Of a DNA stretch of 64,000 nucleotides, positions 13,300 through 54,899 are shown piece by piece (position 1 is the first letter of the stretch; each line of letters starts with the position of its first letter). A program made the translations under genes and the position numbers. Below the pieces are notes generated by a model. The model did not search any database, was not told the origin of the DNA, and saw only the letters and a list, made by a program, of their open reading frames with translations. Origin of the DNA: Escherichia coli (lineage in GTDB: Bacteria > Pseudomonadota > Gammaproteobacteria > Enterobacterales > Enterobacteriaceae); the NCBI RefSeq assembly GCF_003334385.1, contig NZ_QOWN01000003.1; one strand, written 5' to 3'.

Positions 13300-13436
13300 C
13301 GTGTAATGGCTGCATGAAATAAACAATAAAATATAAATAACATTATCAGCCTGCTGACGGCTTGAAGAGAGTCACAGTATCTTGTGCAACATTATTGGAA
13401 AGAGTGAGGGGCGAGGTAGCGAAGCGGAAAAATGTT

Positions 13437-13542
13437 AAAAAAAAGCCCATCGTGGGAGATGGGCAAAGACTACACACAGCAATTCGTTGTTTCACTCAGG
13501 GGATTTCCATGCTTATAAATCAATATGTTGATTTATAACCGT
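13437..13542 (-). ncRNA. rprA: RprA small regulatory RNA (RpoS translational activator)
   Basis: Reverse complement reads ACGGTTATAAATCAACATATTGATTTATAAGCATGGAAATCCCC...CCCATCTCCCACGATGGGC followed by a T-run (terminator hairpin); matches RprA as recalled, between ydiL and ydiK. Confidence 0.85.
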
Positions 13543-18980: not shown

Positions 18981-19149
18981 TCCTGACTTAATGCCGCAAG
19001 TTCGCCAAATCGACCTGGATTAACCTCCGTCCAGGTTCGATGACCTTCTTAATACTGCTTATCTACCGCCTGATATTGTTCAAAAATAATACTAATCGCA
19101 GTTTGTGTTAAAACGGCGGGTTAGCTTTATGAGATTATTCTTATCGCCC

Positions 19150-19246
19150 CTTCAAGAGCTAAGCCACTGAGAGTGCCGGAGATAAGCGCCGGATGGGGTA
19201 GAAACCCTTAAGCCTGTGTCGCACAGACTTAAGGGTTTTCTTATTT
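19150..19246 (+). ncRNA. putative small RNA or terminator structure in the ydiH-sufA spacer (position consistent with RydB)
   Basis: Long imperfect hairpin AAACCCTTAAG...CTTAAGGGTTT (19202-19238) followed by a T-rich tract on the plus strand, about 220 nt from the ydiH stop. The boundaries are approximate, and the strand is inferred only from the terminator. Confidence 0.3.
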
Positions 19247-36908: not shown

Positions 36909-37214
36909 TCAGGCGAGTTTTGCCTGATTGATTTGACTAAGTGGCTCATTGACATCGAAAACTTTGGCGACAACTTCCTCAACGCCGAGATTTTTCAGTC
37001 GGGCAGTATGTTTTTCCAGATAGGCAAGGGCGCTTTTTTCATCAGTGAAAAGGTAGATCCCACCGGCTTCGTGGTTCTTTTCACTTTCTGTCCATACCTT
37101 CCACAGAAAACCAGGTTCCTGATTAATCGACTCAGCAAGTGGTTTAAGCTGCTCAGCCATTGCGTCGCCAAATGGGCCATTAAAAGCAAAATGAAGTTGT
37201 AACAAAGTTGCCAT
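36909..37214 (-). CDS. ydhR: small putative monooxygenase-like protein
   Basis: 101-aa ORF next to the tRNA-Val pair. Confidence 0.75.
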
Positions 37215-37321
37215 AGCGATTCTCCTTCTGATAACGCATACGAAGACAGTGTAAATCTTTTAACGTATTGGATACAGAGAAGAAACAGAGGGAAAAAGGA
37301 GAAGACCAGATTAAGAAAATC

Positions 37322-37398
37322 TGGTGCGTCCGAGTGGACTCGAACCACCGACCCCCACCATGTCAAGGTGGTGCTCTAACCAACTGAGCTACGGACGC
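37322..37398 (-). tRNA. valW: tRNA-Val (GAC)
   Basis: Reverse complement reads GCGTCCGTAGCTCAGTTGGTTAGAGCACCACCTTGACATGGTGGGGGTCGGTGGTTCGAGTCCACTCGGACGCACCA: cloverleaf-compatible, GAC anticodon, 3' CCA. Confidence 0.93.
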
Positions 37399-37402
37399 AG
37401 GA

Positions 37403-37479
37403 TGGTGCGTTCAATTGGACTCGAACCAACGACCCCCACCATGTCAAGGTGGTGCTCTAACCAACTGAGCTATGAACGC
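37403..37479 (-). tRNA. valV: tRNA-Val (GAC)
   Basis: Reverse complement reads GCGTTCATAGCTCAGTTGGTTAGAGCACCACCTTGACATGGTGGGGGTCGTTGGTTCGAGTCCAATTGAACGCACCA; tandem copy 4 nt from valW. Confidence 0.93.
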
Positions 37480-46070: not shown

Positions 46071-46114
46071 TCCATTTCACTCCAGACCCTAACTTCAGCT
46101 CCTGCAAAATCGCA

Positions 46115-46130
46115 AGGTAAACGTTTGCCT
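46115..46130. promoter_or_regulatory. PUR-box-like operator in the purR leader
   Basis: AGGTAAACGTTTGCCT matches the PurR operator consensus ACGCAAACGTTTGCGT at 13 of 16 positions, about 45-60 bp upstream of the purR start codon. Confidence 0.5.
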
Positions 46131-46368
46131 TTACACACCTTACGCACAACAAAAGTGTTGCGGTACGCCGGAAAAACGACACGGAGCGTCAGGAAGGGGT
46201 CAATGGCCAGTACGCAAATAGTGTAAGCGTGGAATTTTGGCCGATCTTGACGAAAAGGGGAAGTGGTAAAAACACTTATCATTATAAATGACGGGAGATT
46301 TTTTCATCACAGTGTGTAAAAATGCGTAATATCACTTTTTGTGTGGTAATAAAAAAGGAGAAAACTTG

Positions 46369-46458
46369 ATGAGCACCGACCTTAAATTTTCACTGGTAAC
46401 AACGATTATCGTCCTCGGTTTGATCGTAGCCGTGGGTTTGACTGCCGCGCTGCACTGA
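46369..46458 (+). CDS. ynhF: 29-aa single-TM small membrane protein
   Basis: Not in the ORF track. ATG at 46369 preceded by Shine-Dalgarno AAGGAG (46355-46360); encodes MSTDLKFSLVTTIIVLGLIVAVGLTAALH; a stem-loop follows the stop. Matches the small protein YnhF as recalled. Confidence 0.6.
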   Translation: MSTDLKFSLVTTIIVLGLIVAVGLTAALH

Positions 46459-46623
46459 TTTCCTCTCGAGGGAGCGCGTTCTCCCTCGCATCTCCTTCCT
46501 GTTTGTTAGCAAAATGGCAAAAGTGTTTTCTCTTTTTGTTATTTTCATTTTTTTGTGATTGCTGTCATGCTTTCGCCACTTTAATGAATATCGCGTAATG
46601 ACGCGAAGAGGTGGAGATAAGGC

Positions 46624-48027: not shown

Positions 48028-48609
48028 TTATGCAGCGAGATTTTTCGCTACGAATTCCCAGTTCACCAGCGCCCAGAAGTGCTCCAGATAGCCAGGACGT
48101 GCATTGCGATAGTCGATGTAATAAGCGTGTTCCCAGACATCAACGGTCAGCAGCGGAGTCGCATCGGTGGTCAGCGGAGTACCCGCGTTAGAGGTTGAAA
48201 CGATAGCCAGTTTGCCATCGCTGTTTTTCACCAGCCAGGTCCAGCCAGAACCAAAGTTTTTGATCGCTGCATCAGTAAACTGCGCTTTGAAATCGGCAAA
48301 GCTGCCAAAAGATGCGGCGATAGCTTCAGCGACTTTTCCAGTCGGTTCGCCACCGGCGTTCGGTGCCAGGCAGTTCCAGTAGAAAGTATGGTTCCAGACC
48401 TGAGCTGCGTTGTTGAATACGCCACCTTCAGAGCTGCGAATAATCTCTTCCAGTGATTTACCTTCAAACGCGGTACCTTTAATCAGGTTGTTCAGGTTAG
48501 TGACATAAGTCTGATGGTGCTTGCCGTAGTGATACTCGATGGTTTCCGCAGAAATGTGCGGTGCCAGAGCATCTTTAGCATATGGTAGTGCAGGTAATTC
48601 GAATGACAT
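48028..48609 (-). CDS. sodB: iron superoxide dismutase
   Basis: 193-aa ORF starting [42 protein letters not shown], recognised as SodB. Confidence 0.96.
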
Positions 48610-48736
48610 TGCTACTCTCCTTTATTATTAATTTGCATACGTACAATAGCCTTATTGTGCGTATGGATAGGGTAGCAAATTAAAAGGTGAGACAAAAGAT
48701 GAACTTACCCTGTTGCCGTAACAACAGGGTAAAGTT

Positions 48737-49552
48737 TTAGCGAAGTGTTTTTGGGGTCATTACCCGACGAGCGCCAACATAGTGGCGCTGCCAGTAGTCT
48801 TCACTGAGAGAAGTGATTTGAATTTCCTGACCTGTGCGCGGTGACTGAATAAATTTGCCGTTGCCGACATACACGCCGACATGATCGGCTGTGCCGCGTC
48901 CCTGAGTACGGAAAAAGACCAGGTCGCCGTTTTTCAGTTCACTACGTTCGATTGGCGCTGCATCACGCAGGTGATACATTTCATTCGCCGTACGCGGAAT
49001 ACGAATTTTCACCAAATCTTTATAAGCGTAATAAACCAGGCCGCTGCAATCAAAACCGGTACGCGGTGAGCTGCCACCCCAACGATATGGCTTACCAATT
49101 TGCTGCATCAGTTTATTCATTGCCACCTTCGTAGCTTTTTGCACCTTCGCTTTGTGCGCGTCGGCAAGAGTTCCTGACGCGGCATTTTTGACTTTCACAC
49201 AATGCGATTTATAGCCCTTACGTTTGGTACACTTTTCGGTAAAGCTGGCTGAGGCCGTTTTATTGACGGCGTGTTTGCTGCGAGTTTTGGCGTTTTTAGA
49301 AGCGGTAATGGAAGATTTTTTAACGGAAGAAGCGGTTTTGCTTTTGGTCGTACTTTTACTGGCGGCTTTTTTCGCTGTTTTCTGGGTCTTTTTGGTGGTT
49401 GCCGTGCTTTTCTTTTTATCTGCTTTTTTGGTGATATGAGTGGTAGCAGAACTCTCCCTGGCTTGCTTTGAAGCATGGGCCATAGGCGTTAAAGGCAGGG
49501 TGGTAAAAAGTAAAGCACAGAGCGTGATCGAAATACGGTTTATCCGCGCCAC
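48737..49552 (-). CDS. mepH: NlpC/P60-family peptidoglycan endopeptidase (ydhO)
   Basis: 271-aa ORF with signal peptide, Lys/Thr/Ser-rich low-complexity linker and C-terminal NlpC/P60 domain (catalytic Cys in DCSGLV). Confidence 0.82.
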   Translation of the reverse strand: MARINRISITLCALLFTTLPLTPMAHASKQARESSATTHITKKADKKKSTATTKKTQKTAKKAASKSTTKSKTASSVKKSSITASKNAKTRSKHAVNKTASASFTEKCTKRKGYKSHCVKVKNAASGTLADAHKAKVQKATKVAMNKLMQQIGKPYRWGGSSPRTGFDCSGLVYYAYKDLVKIRIPRTANEMYHLRDAAPIERSELKNGDLVFFRTQGRGTADHVGVYVGNGKFIQSPRTGQEIQITSLSEDYWQRHYVGARRVMTPKTLR

Positions 49553-49885
49553 TGAGCGTCCCTCTGTTAAGGCAGGTCTATCATGCCTGCGTCTGATTTA
49601 CAAAACTTGATGATTCTAATGTATAGAAGAAGAGAAAGTTAATAGCTTTTATTGTTAAAAAATACGTTTCGTTGGCGAGCGCAAAAAAATGCAGCAGTGA
49701 AAGCTAAAAATGGTTATAAATACGCCAGTTTGCCGGCATCAGAGAAGAAACGAATATTTGAAATGCAACAAATAGAGCAAAGGGATAAAATAGCAAAAGC
49801 GTGATGAAAATGTTATTTTCCGATGCCGCACTGACCCGCTACAATGTCAGATTACTGCCGTAAAGAAGTTTGAGGAAGCAAGACA

Positions 49886-50233
49886 ATGAGCACCACTATC
49901 GAAAAAATCCAACGCCAGATTGCTGAAAACCCGATCCTGCTGTACATGAAAGGTTCACCGAAACTGCCGAGCTGCGGTTTCTCTGCCCAGGCAGTCCAGG
50001 CGCTTGCCGCATGTGGCGAACGTTTTGCCTATGTTGATATTCTGCAGAATCCGGACATTCGTGCGGAACTGCCGAAATATGCTAACTGGCCGACCTTCCC
50101 GCAACTGTGGGTTGACGGCGAGCTGGTCGGCGGTTGTGATATCGTGATCGAAATGTATCAGCGTGGCGAACTGCAGCAGCTGATCAAAGAAACTGCCGCT
50201 AAATACAAGTCTGAAGAGCCGGACGCGGAATAA
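49886..50233 (+). CDS. grxD: monothiol glutaredoxin (Grx4)
   Basis: 115-aa ORF with the CGFS active-site motif (PSCGFS). Confidence 0.93.
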   Translation: MSTTIEKIQRQIAENPILLYMKGSPKLPSCGFSAQAVQALAACGERFAYVDILQNPDIRAELPKYANWPTFPQLWVDGELVGGCDIVIEMYQRGELQQLIKETAAKYKSEEPDAE

Positions 50234-50283: not shown

Positions 50284-53200
50284 CTATCCCCAATCCAGCC
50301 CTTGTGGCGAACTTGAAAATCCCGCCTCACGCAGCAGCGTAAACATCGGCGTTTGCCGGACCGGTAGATCATTCACTTCTGTTAGCGTAAAGCGCAGCCG
50401 TGGTTCGCGACGCAGTGCGGTAGTCAGCGCGTGGAAAACCTCTGGGGCGAGTAATTCCTCTTTTTCCTGCCAGACCAGCATTTTTTTGCCACCTTGCGCC
50501 AGATAGAGTAACAATTTGCCGCCAGAAACGACCACCAGCGCACCCGCCCGACGCGTTGGAACCAGCGTTGCCGGATGTGCAGGCCAGGGCAGAAGATTTC
50601 CCCACACATTAGCCGGATCGTTGGCAGAGAGCGCCACTGGTGTATAGTGGCGCGTTTGCGTGGCTTGTGTCGCCAGATCGCGCAATCGGTCAATAGTCAG
50701 ACGTTCAGCGAATTGCGCGCCACCCAGACCTTCTACAAAACGACCTCGCATAATTCGCCCGGAGTCTTCCATACTTCGACAAAGCGTTTGCATCGATGGA
50801 AACCCGCCAGGGATATTTTCGGCTATCACCGCCTGACGACTGATGATGCCGTAGCGGTCGAGCATATTTTCCGCCAGCGCCAGCATCCTTTCGGTATCGT
50901 TTAGTGGCTCCACCTGCAATAACGACCAGCGTCCAGCCAGATTTGGTGTGTTGTAAGATACCCGCGGCGAGACGGGTTGCGCATAGACAGGACGTCCACG
51001 ACGAGCCCGGTGACTGCGGCGAGTTGAGGTGCGTGCGTTGGAACTGCTGCGGGTGAGGGCGCGTAACGGTGCCCAAATGTCGCTGGTGATGACGCCTTGC
51101 CAGACCAGCGCCCATAACGCCTCTTGCAGGGCAGAGAGATCAACCGATTCGCCGATTTTGTCGCGTATCCGTTGGCTGATTTGTTGTGCAAACCAGGCTC
51201 CTCCGTCAGCCAGAACAGCGACTATCGCTTGTTGCAGCGCCGAACGATTCGCCTGATCCGCTTCGGCGGGAGTGAACGATTCTGCAGCATATTCCTGTAG
51301 ATGCAGTGCCACCAGGCCGTCATCTTCACCCAGTTTTTTTGCCCCGACCAGATAACCGCACCGGTTGCCAGTAATTCATCGAGCATTTCTGACGAATAGT
51401 CGCGTACGCGGGCAGGCAGGATCTGGCTTTCCCAGAGTGAGGCGGGTAAACCGACTCCGGCAAGCTGTTCGATCACCCGCATCACGCCATCTACGCCCTC
51501 ATAAACGCCTGGCGATGTTGAGGCAAAGAGCGCCGGGCTACCATCGGTGGCGGGTAATACGCCCTGACGTTCCAGCAGCAATCGCGCATAGGTCGTGGCT
51601 GCAACGGGACGCGTCGCTTCTCTGGCGGCTTGCAGCGAGCGCAAACGCAGACGACGAAATACTTCATCGCTCACCCAGATGTCTTGTTGCAGATTCATCA
51701 CCAGACCCTGTTCACGCAGTTGCTGAAGCTGCTCTTCGACAATGGCAATACCGAGACTAAACTCATGAGCCAGTTGTTCAGCCGTGACCAGAGCATGAGC
51801 CCGGAGATAGCGCAGAAAGAGGTCGCGAAGCGGGTAACTGACTCTATGTAAATAAATCTCTGGCAATGACTCTGGTAGTCGTACGCCGAGGGCATCACGC
51901 AGCCTGGCGGCATCATCCATACAGGCAAGACGCTCCTGTCCGCTAATCATCGCTGGGAAGATTCGTTTTACTGCAAGAAGATTTTCCAGATACGACGCAA
52001 CCTCTTCACTGCTGCCTGTATGCCGTTGCGCCAGGTCTTCAACGGTCATTGGCCCCAGTTCGCGCAGCAGGTCGAACAATCCTTCTTCACCTTTCGCTCT
52101 TCTGCCAGGAGCCAGTCGTTGCAACTCTTCTTCCACCTGGCGAATGACCTGCGGGTCGAGTAATTCCCCCGGATCGACCTGTCCGAGTAGATTGCGCAGT
52201 AACTCGCTGTCCAGCGACAGTACGGATGCCCGGCGCTCTGCCAGCGGGGCGTCGCTCTGGTACATAAATTCCGCGACATAGCCGAACAATAAACTTGTGG
52301 CGAAAGGCGAGGGCGTAGTGGTCGTTACATCGGATATTTGAATTTCGCCACCGTTCAGGCGACGCATCAAACGTTCCAGTGCGGGAAGATCATAAACATC
52401 TTGCAGACATTCGCGTAGGGTTTCGAGAATGACCGGAAAATCCGGATATCCCTGAGCGATTTCCAGCAACTGACTGGCGCGCAGCCGTTGTTGCCAAAGC
52501 GGGGTGCGATGGCCCGGAGTGCGCCCCGGCATTAATAATGCCCGCGCGGCGCATTCGCGAAAACGGGCGGCGAAAAGTGCCGAGCTGCCTACCGCCTCGC
52601 GGACAATTTGCAGCAACTTTTCTGGTTCAAACAAAAAAATCGCGGCATCGGGCAATTTACCATCGGTGTCAGGAATACGTGCAACAATGCCGTCATCACT
52701 GGCGACCACCGACGCGTCAGCGCCCCATAGCGCATGTATTCGCCCGGCAATCGCCACCGCCCAGGGTTCATGCACCCGTCTTCCATAGGGAGAGTGCAAA
52801 ATAATACGCCAGTCACCAATTTCATCACGGCACCGTTCGAGGACCAGATGGCGACTCCCCGGAACGATGCCCGTCGCGTTGCGCTGCTCCTCAATCAACC
52901 CCTGAATATTGGCGATCGTATTTTCTTCTGCCAGCCACGGGGGAATAGTCCCGGAAAAGAACGCGCCATCCGCCAGCAAATGAAGAAAATCGCCGATCAT
53001 CTCGCCTAATTCAGCCGGACGTCCGTTACCTTCACCACGCCAGAAGGGGAGCCGGGCAGAACGACCCGGAGCAGGAGTCACAATCACCTGATCGCGGGTG
53101 ATTTGCTGGATCCGCCATGAGGTAGCGCCGAGAGTGATAATGTCGTTCACCCGCGACTCATATACCATCTCCTCATCCAGTTCACCCACCCGCCGCGAAC

Positions 53201-54899
53201 CGGCCTTTTCTTCACCTTCGGGTAATAACACGCTATACATGCCACGATCCGGAATGGTGCCGCCGCTGGTAACCGCCAACAATTGAGCGCCAGGTCGGGC
53301 GGTCAATATCCCGGTCTCCCTGTTCCAGACCAGTTTGGGGCGAAAAGCAGAAAAATCGCCAGAGGGATAGCGCCCGGAAAGCATATCCAGCGTGGCGTCA
53401 AAAACACGTCTTGGCAGATCTTTCCACGGTGCGGCACGGCGTACGCGGGAGTACCATTCGTCTACCTGTAATGCATCCATCGCCGCGGCGGCAACGGTTT
53501 GCTGCGCAAGGACGTCGAGAGGATTATGCGGTGGTGTCAGGTTTTCCAGCCTGCCTGCGAACATACACTCTACAATGACTGCGGAATCGACTAAATCACG
53601 CCGGGTACGGGGGAAAAACAGCCCTTTAGATACACCGCCAACCTGATGTCCGGCGCGACCAATGCGTTGTAACCCACTGGCAACAGAAAGCGGCGTTGCC
53701 ACCTGAATCACCAGATCCACCGCGCCCATATCAATCCCCAGTTCAAGACTGGAGGTTGCGACCACGCAGCGTAATTCACCCGATTTCAGCGCCTGTTCGG
53801 TGATTGCTCGTTGTTCTTTAGAGACGGAGCCGTGGTGTGAGCGGGCAATAAAAACGTCGCTACTTTGTACACGGTTAGAGGTTGCGCCGGAGGTCGACTC
53901 GAAATGGGCCGCATCAACGGCGATAGACGGGGAACGCTGTAAGCGTGCGGCGTAAAGCTCATTTAATCGTGCCGTCAGTTTTTCCGCCAGCCCCCGCGAA
54001 TTAGTAAAGACAATGGTCGAGCGATGGCGCAACACTTCATCAAGGATACCCGTTTCAATATATGGCCAGATGGAGCCTTCCCGGCCGGCATGGCTGTCTT
54101 CGCCGGTGCCGCTGGCGACCGATGAGACATCATCCATATTGGCGACCGGTACGACAATTCGTATCTGCGGATGGCGCATTGCGGGCGGGTTGACTACCGT
54201 AACCGGGCGATCGCCACCAAGAAATGCTGCCACATCGCTGGCTGAGCGCACAGTGGCAGAAAGGCCAATTCGCTGTGCTGAGGTGTGGAGCAGCGCATCG
54301 AGCCGCTCCAGACTTAACGCCAGATGCGCACCACGTTTACTGCCCGCTACCGCGTGGACTTCATCAATAATTACCGTTTCGACGCCGCGTAGCGTTTCGC
54401 GCGCGCGGGAGGTCAGCATCAGATAGAGTGATTCGGGTGTGGTGATCAGAATATCCGGCGGATTACGGGTGAGTTTGCTGCGTTCCTGTGCAGGCGTATC
54501 GCCAGTACGGATCCCTACGCGAAGATTGACTTCCGTTTCGCCGCGCCGCCGCCGTTCATCGGCAATACCCTTCAACGGGATCTGCAAGTTGCGCTGAACG
54601 TCGGTGCCCAGGGCTTTTATCGGTGAAATATAGAGGATGCGTGAGGTTTTACGCTTATGCGCCTCGCGGGTATTTTCGCCGCCTTCGCGGAAGAGCCGAT
54701 CGAGGGCGTAGAGAAATGCTGCCAGCGTTTTCCCGGAGCCGGTCGGTGCAATCACCAGCGCATGTTCGCTTCGCGCCGCCACATGCCAGGTTTGCGGCTG
54801 GACAGCGGTCGGCTGTTTAAAGGCGCGAAGAAACCAGTCGCGGGTCGCCGGTGAAAACACGTCCGGCAGGAGCGATGAAGGGTCTGGATTATCTGCCAT
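50284..54899 (-). pseudogene. lhr: Lhr-type large SF2 helicase, reading frame interrupted by an apparent -1 frameshift
   Basis: Two overlapping minus-strand ORFs (51222..54899, 1225 aa with Walker A APTGSGKT and DEVH box; 50284..51312, 342 aa) together cover one helicase; span is 4616 nt (not a multiple of 3); candidate site is the T7 run at 51334-51340. Confidence 0.65.

Follow-up and report, generated by a model that had tools for sequence, protein, structure and literature searches.

A 64,000-nucleotide stretch of Escherichia coli chromosome (contig NZ_QOWN01000003.1), referred to here as the window, carries the gene order sodB–mepH–grxD–lhr. We examined mepH (ydhO) and in particular the long, lysine-rich N-terminal region of the peptidoglycan hydrolase that it encodes.

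The mepH locus and the layout of its product

The open reading frame (ORF) at 48737–49552 on the minus strand starts with GTG, comprises 271 codons (816 nt) and is 100% identical over 816 nt to the gene annotated in RefSeq as peptidoglycan DD-endopeptidase MepH. A single significant Pfam domain, NlpC/P60 (PF00877; MEROPS C40), covers residues 153–263 with an E value of 2.3e-36 and spans the full model (1–105), which together with the RefSeq identity bears out the assignment to an NlpC/P60 endopeptidase made in a first-pass annotation of the window. A search of NCBIfam returned nothing above cut-off and no MepH-specific model, the top match being the MepS model with 86 bits against a cut-off of 186. 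DD-endopeptidase activity of MepH on 4-3 cross-links is attributed to Singh et al. 2012 in PMC11211486 and PMC7516022. The protein is the known MepH, and its low-complexity N-terminal region is already evident from the public sequence. Every one of the 5426 complete E. coli genomes searched yielded a mepH match, the neighbors sodB and grxD being unchanged, and the gene is flanked by a terminator-like hairpin after the stop codon and a promoter-like site upstream. E. coli TUM2805 (4.09-Mb chromosome; locus L003), one of only two complete genomes missing most of mepH, retains 116 nt of its 3′ end, abutting grxD. The layout of gene and product is as follows.

48737–49552, minus strand: mepH (ydhO) coding sequence, 271 aa, GTG start, between sodB and grxD (ORF; RefSeq match)
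49472–49552, minus strand: signal peptide, residues 1–27 (MARINRISITLCALLFTTLPLTPMAHA), predicted cleavage AHA↓S, no lipobox (sequence; kept in orthologues)
49244–49471, minus strand: polycationic, predicted-disordered tail of mature MepH, residues 28–103 (structure prediction, PDB searches, charge and isoelectric point)
49412–49471, minus strand: semi-conserved patch at the mature N-terminus, residues 28–47 (38-orthologue alignment)
49253–49432, minus strand: core low-complexity K/T/S/A segment, residues 41–100, unalignable between genera (entropy; gappy columns; length and charge kept)
49187–49243, minus strand: predicted beta-hairpin, residues 104–122, TEKC-x9-C-VK (C108/C118 invariant; predicted strands; Cys–GKPY spacing)
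49097–49168, minus strand: predicted alpha-helix, residues 129–152, leading into the catalytic domain, counterpart of MepS helix alpha-1 (structure prediction, Foldseek, alignment)
48764–49096, minus strand: NlpC/P60 catalytic domain, residues 153–263, C169 and H224 conserved (PF00877; PDB matches; alignment)
48028–48609, minus strand: sodB
49886–50233, plus strand: grxD

The first-pass annotation had singled out 49133–49471, exactly residues 28–140 of MepH, as a linker dominated by lysine, threonine, serine and alanine; the string quoted there lies at residues 41–79. This dominance is confirmed by measurement, with K (25.7%), A (16.8%), S (15.0%) and T (15.0%) making up 72.6% of residues 28–140, alongside 32 K+R against 4 D+E. 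Across residues 38–100 the four amino acids reach 82.5% and the net charge is +19, and Shannon entropy in 20-aa windows falls to ~2.1 bits within residues 41–80, the core ranging from 2.1 to 2.5 bits. Set against all 54 window ORFs that are 150 aa or longer, the MepH stretch displays both the most extreme low complexity and the most positive charge: its minimum 40-aa entropy is 2.26 bits (median 3.35), its maximum K+T+S+A content 87% (median 37%) and its maximum net charge per 60 aa +19 (median +5). Tandem Repeats Finder detected no tandem array in 48700–49600; the low complexity is therefore compositional and does not stem from a repeat unit. For residues 28–103 we calculated an isoelectric point (pI) of 11.17, a net charge of +19.6 and a grand average of hydropathy of −1.26 at ~30% lysine, which upholds the positive charge ascribed to the region, and mature MepH as a whole is very basic (pI 10.4, +38).

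Two AlphaFold2 (AF2) runs yielded the same layout, the first from 38 close orthologues with a poor overall mean predicted local distance difference test score (pLDDT) of 50, and the second from a 105-sequence alignment with a mean pLDDT of 79 and values above 94 for the catalytic domain. Residues 28–103 are without secondary structure in both runs, at a pLDDT of 27–35 with the shallow alignment and 49–60 with the deep one, and PDB searches by sequence and by fold found no solved structure over residues 28–121. Residues 28–103 are hence predicted to be disordered, in agreement with the original proposal for this part of the region. The proposal fails for residues 104–140, which are conserved and predicted to fold, and the range 28–140 was drawn too long, as it takes in a conserved Cys108/Cys118 beta-hairpin (104–122) and runs into a helix of the catalytic module (129–152).

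The predicted hairpin strands (residues 104–109 and 117–122) are found in both AF2 runs, with a pLDDT of 75–85 in the deep one. C108 and C118 are invariant in an alignment of 38 Enterobacteriaceae orthologues from Escherichia, Citrobacter, Salmonella, Kosakonia, Enterobacter, Leclercia, Scandinavium and others, and the spacing between the first cysteine and the GKPY motif is nearly constant at 43–46 residues in 101 of 106 orthologues. In the Pfam and PDB searches the hairpin fell outside the domain match and outside every solved structure found. Judging from this conservation, a C108–C118 disulfide probably staples the hairpin in the periplasm, and the element is probably an accessory specific to MepH of Enterobacteriaceae. 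The helix that follows is predicted at residues 129–149 with a pLDDT above 90 in the deep run (94–98 for residues 131–271) and bears the motif ADAHKxxVQKAxKTAMNKLMxQIGKPY, conserved among the 38 orthologues. Sequence and fold matches in the PDB begin only at about residue 122–145. Foldseek aligns ~145 columns, helix included, with MepS in its NlpI complexes (8xud, 8xup), and the MepH model fits solved NlpC/P60 domains, which have a papain-like fold, with template-modelling scores to target of 0.8–0.9 and root-mean-square deviations of 1.7–2.8 Å. Both the catalytic Cys (C169) and the catalytic His (H224) reach a conservation of 90% or more among the 105 aligned sequences.

In mycobacterial RipA, an inhibitory pro-segment occludes the active site as long as it has not been removed. 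An autoinhibitory pro-segment of this kind at the N-terminus of MepH would accord with the alignment of RipA structures to MepH from about residue 122 onward, and with a conserved hairpin that adjoins the catalytic module; any such role, however, would belong to the hairpin and not to the K/T/S tail, and we regard it as very improbable for the region considered here.

Inspection of the N-terminus by eye points to a signal peptide with R3/R6, the segment ISITLCALLFTTLPL and the site A25-H26-A27↓S28, all conserved across the 38 orthologues. No lipobox of the form [LVI][ASTVI][GAS]C was found at the signal-peptide end; the sole early cysteine, C12, follows I-T-L and sits within the hydrophobic core. 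MepH has been grouped with the soluble periplasmic endopeptidases by signal-sequence prediction, native MepH complements a mepS mutant when overexpressed, and fusions of MepH to either the transmembrane segment of MepM or the lipoprotein signal of MepS do not complement this mutant (PMC7516022). The first-pass annotation had viewed the linker as a likely tether between the signal peptide or a lipid anchor and the catalytic domain. A spacer holding the catalytic domain off the membrane, via an uncleaved signal peptide or a lipid, would match the location of the segment between signal peptide and catalytic domain, and disordered linkers do serve this purpose in MepS and in lipoproteins of the LpoA/LpoB type. 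Yet without a lipobox, with a canonical AHA↓S signal peptidase I site, with MepH classed as soluble and with membrane-anchored chimeras that lose complementation (PMC7516022), the tail would have nothing to be tethered to after cleavage, and this reading, already disfavored, is barely credible. Residues 28–103 are instead predicted to form the free N-terminal tail of a soluble periplasmic enzyme once the signal peptide has been removed.

Shadow reading frames over the tail

The same stretch of DNA carries three further long ORFs that overlap mepH on both strands, as the first-pass annotation had pointed out.

49195–49476, minus strand: shadow ORF of 93 aa in the +1 frame of mepH, P/K/L/R-rich; not a gene (composition; unannotated in RefSeq)
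49224–49439, plus strand: antisense shadow ORF of 71 aa, mirroring the linker with an L/V/A/F-rich product; not a gene (composition)
49271–49471, plus strand: antisense shadow ORF of 66 aa, mirroring the linker with an F/G/R-rich product; not a gene (composition)

Such stacking is uncommon within the window, where 10 of 637 tiles of 339 nt lie under at least four ORFs of at least 60 aa. AAA (23 of 113), ACC, GCC and AAG predominate among the linker codons, and T occupies codon position 2 in 8% of them, as opposed to 24% for the catalytic domain. With T so scarce at this position in a sequence built almost wholly from AAA/AAG, ACN, GCN and TCN/AGY codons, the +1 sense frame stays free of stops over residues 21–119 and two antisense frames over residues 29–102 and 39–114. 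The remaining two alternative frames are full of stops, and the total of 21 stops in alternative frames is not unusual against ~26 in shuffled sequences. When the codon order of residues 28–140 was shuffled, open runs of 60 codons or more persisted in four alternative frames in 84% of trials. The explanation by repetitive AAA/GCN-rich DNA therefore holds, with ACN codons added to it.

We also considered the shadow ORFs as true overlapping genes and rejected this possibility, since open frames of this kind reappear when codon order is shuffled, the DNA beneath them lacks conservation between genera in the 38-orthologue alignment, the predicted products are low-complexity mirror images, and the RefSeq records examined list mepH alone at this position. 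In protein databases the 93-aa frame occurs only as a fusion with mepH, derived from frameshifted or error-containing assemblies. None of the three is a gene; all are artefacts of composition. They share their cause in base composition, the lack of protein conservation and the lack of annotation with ordinary shadow ORFs in biased coding DNA, and nothing about them is distinctive at mepH.

Conservation and length variation of the tail

Five zones can be told apart in the 38-orthologue alignment: the signal peptide, the patch at residues 28–47, an unalignable K/T/S/A segment, the cysteine motif and the helix. Within the patch S28 is invariant, and Q30, A31, H39, K42 and K47 are at least 90% conserved, whereas residues 48 to ~100 form gappy, non-conserved columns that cannot be aligned between genera. 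The linker is nevertheless present in the orthologues, as a comparison of tail lengths, counted from the start of the mature protein up to the first cysteine of the hairpin in 106 parseable relatives, demonstrates: the median is 82 aa and species-level forms mostly range from 70 to 99 aa. Only five tails are shorter than 60 aa, and each of these is a single in-frame deletion allele (four from E. coli, one Salmonella-like). Composition and charge are kept as well, with 23–32% K+R, 19–44% S+T, a median of 7% hydrophobic residues and a net charge of +9 to +23. Longer N-terminal regions, likewise basic and rich in S/T/K/A/P but without the cysteine hairpin, occur in more remote MepH-like proteins, namely those from Dickeya zeae (334 aa), Affinibrenneria salicis (286 aa) and Rouxiella (285–290 aa), with 170–218 aa in total ahead of the catalytic-domain motif. 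From these comparisons, selection appears to keep the length, charge and hydrophilicity of the tail and not its sequence.

Within E. coli, the tail region is an indel hot spot. Three sites recur in the description of the alleles.

49385–49386, minus strand: junction of a 12-nt (QKAS) deletion after codon 56 (T56), 271- versus 275-aa allele (allele alignment)
49298–49336, no strand assigned: two 9-nt direct repeats, AGAAGCGGT, lying 30 nt apart, at 49298 and 49328 (repeat search)
49316–49321, minus strand: A6 homopolymer in codons 78–79, site of an A7 frameshift (allele alignment; loci L004–L007)

The window carries the 12-nt-deleted, 271-aa allele. Since the 275-aa form is common to E. albertii and resembles that of other genera, it is probably ancestral. 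To estimate allele frequencies, complete E. coli genomes were sampled at even spacing and the allele was read from the length of the match; 25 of these genomes had the 816-nt form, 13 the 828-nt form and one, TUM10828, an 827-nt mepH annotated as a frameshifted pseudogene. A BLAST query of 71 nt spanning the 12-nt indel gave no matches, presumably owing to low-complexity masking. Rarer in-frame deletion alleles encode 210–262 aa, and the large deletions are each seen in one or very few sequences. One of the shorter forms, of 261 aa (P0008), is a natural 30-nt (10-aa) in-frame deletion that the two 9-nt direct repeats bracket. An inverted repeat of 15 nt, with 93% complementarity and its arms 85 nt apart, pairs the start of the linker (49404–49418) with signal-peptide coding sequence (49504–49518) and is probably a chance match in A/T-rich sequence.

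The change from A6 to A7 at 49316–49321 recurs in several Illumina-derived assemblies. In the A7 allele (P0030), gene callers start at the shadow-ORF ATG (49476) and produce a 246-aa chimera devoid of a signal peptide, which databases label as ‘putative exported hydrolase’; the allele appears genuine and would merely truncate MepH. Two further variants with a double frameshift and the linker in the +1 frame (P0013, P0022) were considered as natural frameshift-tolerant alleles and rejected, as their source assemblies are fragmented in the neighboring genes lhr, grxD and ydhP as well; those differences in P0013 that were checked each alter one base within an A-run, and both variants are likely sequencing errors. 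The open +1 frame and the A-runs thus make mepH prone to chimeric mis-annotation in frameshifted or error-rich assemblies, as these three cases illustrate.

The tail might also lack a specific function and be a tolerated, drifting low-complexity expansion born from replication slippage and kept hydrophilic only because variants with hydrophobic residues or stops would damage export or the downstream domain, in keeping with its indels (the 12-nt QKAS unit, the 30-nt deletion at 9-nt repeats, larger in-frame deletions and A6 frameshifts) and with the lack of both tandem-repeat structure and sequence conservation. However, a length of 70–99 aa and a charge of about +20 are narrowly held across genera whose tails cannot be aligned, distant Enterobacterales still carry long basic regions, and large deletion alleles remain confined to one or very few sequences each. 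We consider neutral drift quite improbable. Charge, length and hydrophilicity that are kept without sequence fit a sequence-independent physical role of the tail.

The lhr gene (50284–54899, minus strand) is broken up into ORFs of 1225 and 342 aa that overlap and lie in different frames, with a break near 51222–51312 where the window has 351 nt and most E. coli have 352 nt. Strain 730V1 has an identical allele, which RefSeq annotates as an lhr pseudogene with a frameshift, and this lhr segment is unmatched in about 1044 of 5426 complete genomes. In the soil isolate E. coli SC434 (locus L002) nearly all of lhr is deleted, leaving small remnants of helicase and endonuclease between grxD and rnt. 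Rfam matches elsewhere comprise STnc550, RprA and rydB among 46071–46461 (plus strand), 13435–13542 (minus strand) and 19146–19206 (plus strand), and HPnc0260 at 37198–37360 (plus strand); two tRNA genes lie at 37325–37398 and 37406–37479 (minus strand).

A candidate role for the polycationic tail

On balance, we lean towards the following explanation. After cleavage at AHA↓S, residues 28–103 would be left as a free, disordered, polycationic tail, followed by the two-cysteine beta-hairpin (104–122), the helix (129–152) and the NlpC/P60 domain. Such a tail could act as a flexible affinity or reach element toward the anionic sacculus and envelope surfaces, where electrostatic, sequence-independent contacts would hold an otherwise diffusing hydrolase on its substrate; the shadow ORFs form part of this explanation as artefacts of composition.

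Among the closest known systems is the E. coli paralogue MepS (Spr; PMC11211486), like MepH an NlpC/P60 DD-endopeptidase with a disordered segment before helix alpha-1. Both are substrates of NlpI–Prc, and their folds superpose over the ~145 aligned columns. MepS is an outer-membrane lipoprotein, and its 36-residue, non-basic segment serves as a true tether and as an NlpI-binding element. In contrast, the MepH tail comprises ~76 polycationic residues after a signal peptide predicted to be cleaved, and the Cys-x9-Cys hairpin behind it has no counterpart in MepS.

This likeness gives rise to the main rival explanation, a docking or degradation handle for NlpI–Prc that would work in the manner of the disordered MepS N-terminus, and we judge it unlikely. 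MepH is indeed degraded by Prc in a partly NlpI-dependent manner according to genetic and proteolysis data (PMC8996183, PMC11789061), the MepS N-terminus binds NlpI with a disorder-to-order transition (PMC11211486), and the semi-conserved patch 28–47 lies inside the MepH tail. Much MepH proteolysis is, however, independent of NlpI (PMC11789061), and MepS binding needs L24 and F31, both hydrophobic, directly before helix alpha-1 (PMC11211486). The K/T/S stretch of MepH offers no such hydrophobic anchor residues before the helix; it is ~7% hydrophobic (median) and devoid of an alignable motif. In a register that aligns GKPYRWGG of MepH with the MepS sequence, the equivalents of L24 and F31 presumably fall at about residues 124–131 of MepH, in the conserved hairpin/helix region and outside the K/T/S stretch. 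Moreover, a specific docking motif would not predict conservation of length and charge independently of sequence.

Low-complexity sequence N-terminal to an NlpC/P60 domain, rich in S/T/K/N, is also found in the Gram-positive hydrolases Listeria p60/Iap and B. subtilis LytE. Weak matches to NCBIfam NF010495 (residues 22–264) and to LytE (8i2e, residues 51–263) reach into the MepH tail because of this shared composition. In p60 and LytE the linker connects the catalytic domain with folded modules that bind the wall (LysM, SH3), whereas MepH is without such a module, and its tail is therefore the only candidate targeting element. A further resemblance is offered by B. subtilis RsgI and PBP1, for which Brunet et al. 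2022 (PMC9732909) describe extracytoplasmic disordered regions on wall-homeostasis proteins, like the MepH tail, and propose that these regions act via physical or compositional properties on the peptidoglycan meshwork. These proteins differ from MepH in organism, envelope type, family and composition, and pore sensing by the MepH tail would be an analogy only.

Several points weigh against an affinity or reach element. We found no study of the MepH tail in the literature searched, and the electrostatic role is drawn from composition. Its disorder is a prediction built on AF2 confidence and composition, and cleavage of the signal peptide is likewise a prediction, judged by eye. The conserved positions of patch 28–47 hint at a specific partner, as opposed to purely non-specific electrostatics. 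Finally, the alleles encoding 210–262 aa suggest that a full-length tail is not strictly required; as mepH is individually dispensable (PMC11789061), they say little about the need for the tail.

A bolder version of the affinity element, which we hold to be doubtful, envisages the tail as a dedicated targeting device that clings to, threads into or senses the pore state of the anionic peptidoglycan mesh, in line with the proposal for the B. subtilis extracytoplasmic disordered regions, and takes the Cys108–Cys118 hairpin for a further accessory module, not described before, of the MepH subfamily. If true, such a tail would set where MepH cuts and would explain why artificial anchoring destroys its function.

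The finding is correct but ordinary, of modest importance and without surprise for a specialist. Its practical use lies in the corrected map of tail (28–103), hairpin (104–122), helix and catalytic domain, which shows where constructs should be cut and indicates which part of MepH is the better candidate for recognition by NlpI/Prc. MepH is one of three redundantly essential cross-link-cleaving enzymes in the growth of the E. coli wall, and the tail bears on a detail of that process, namely what keeps a hydrolase that is freely soluble at the sacculus and restrains it there.

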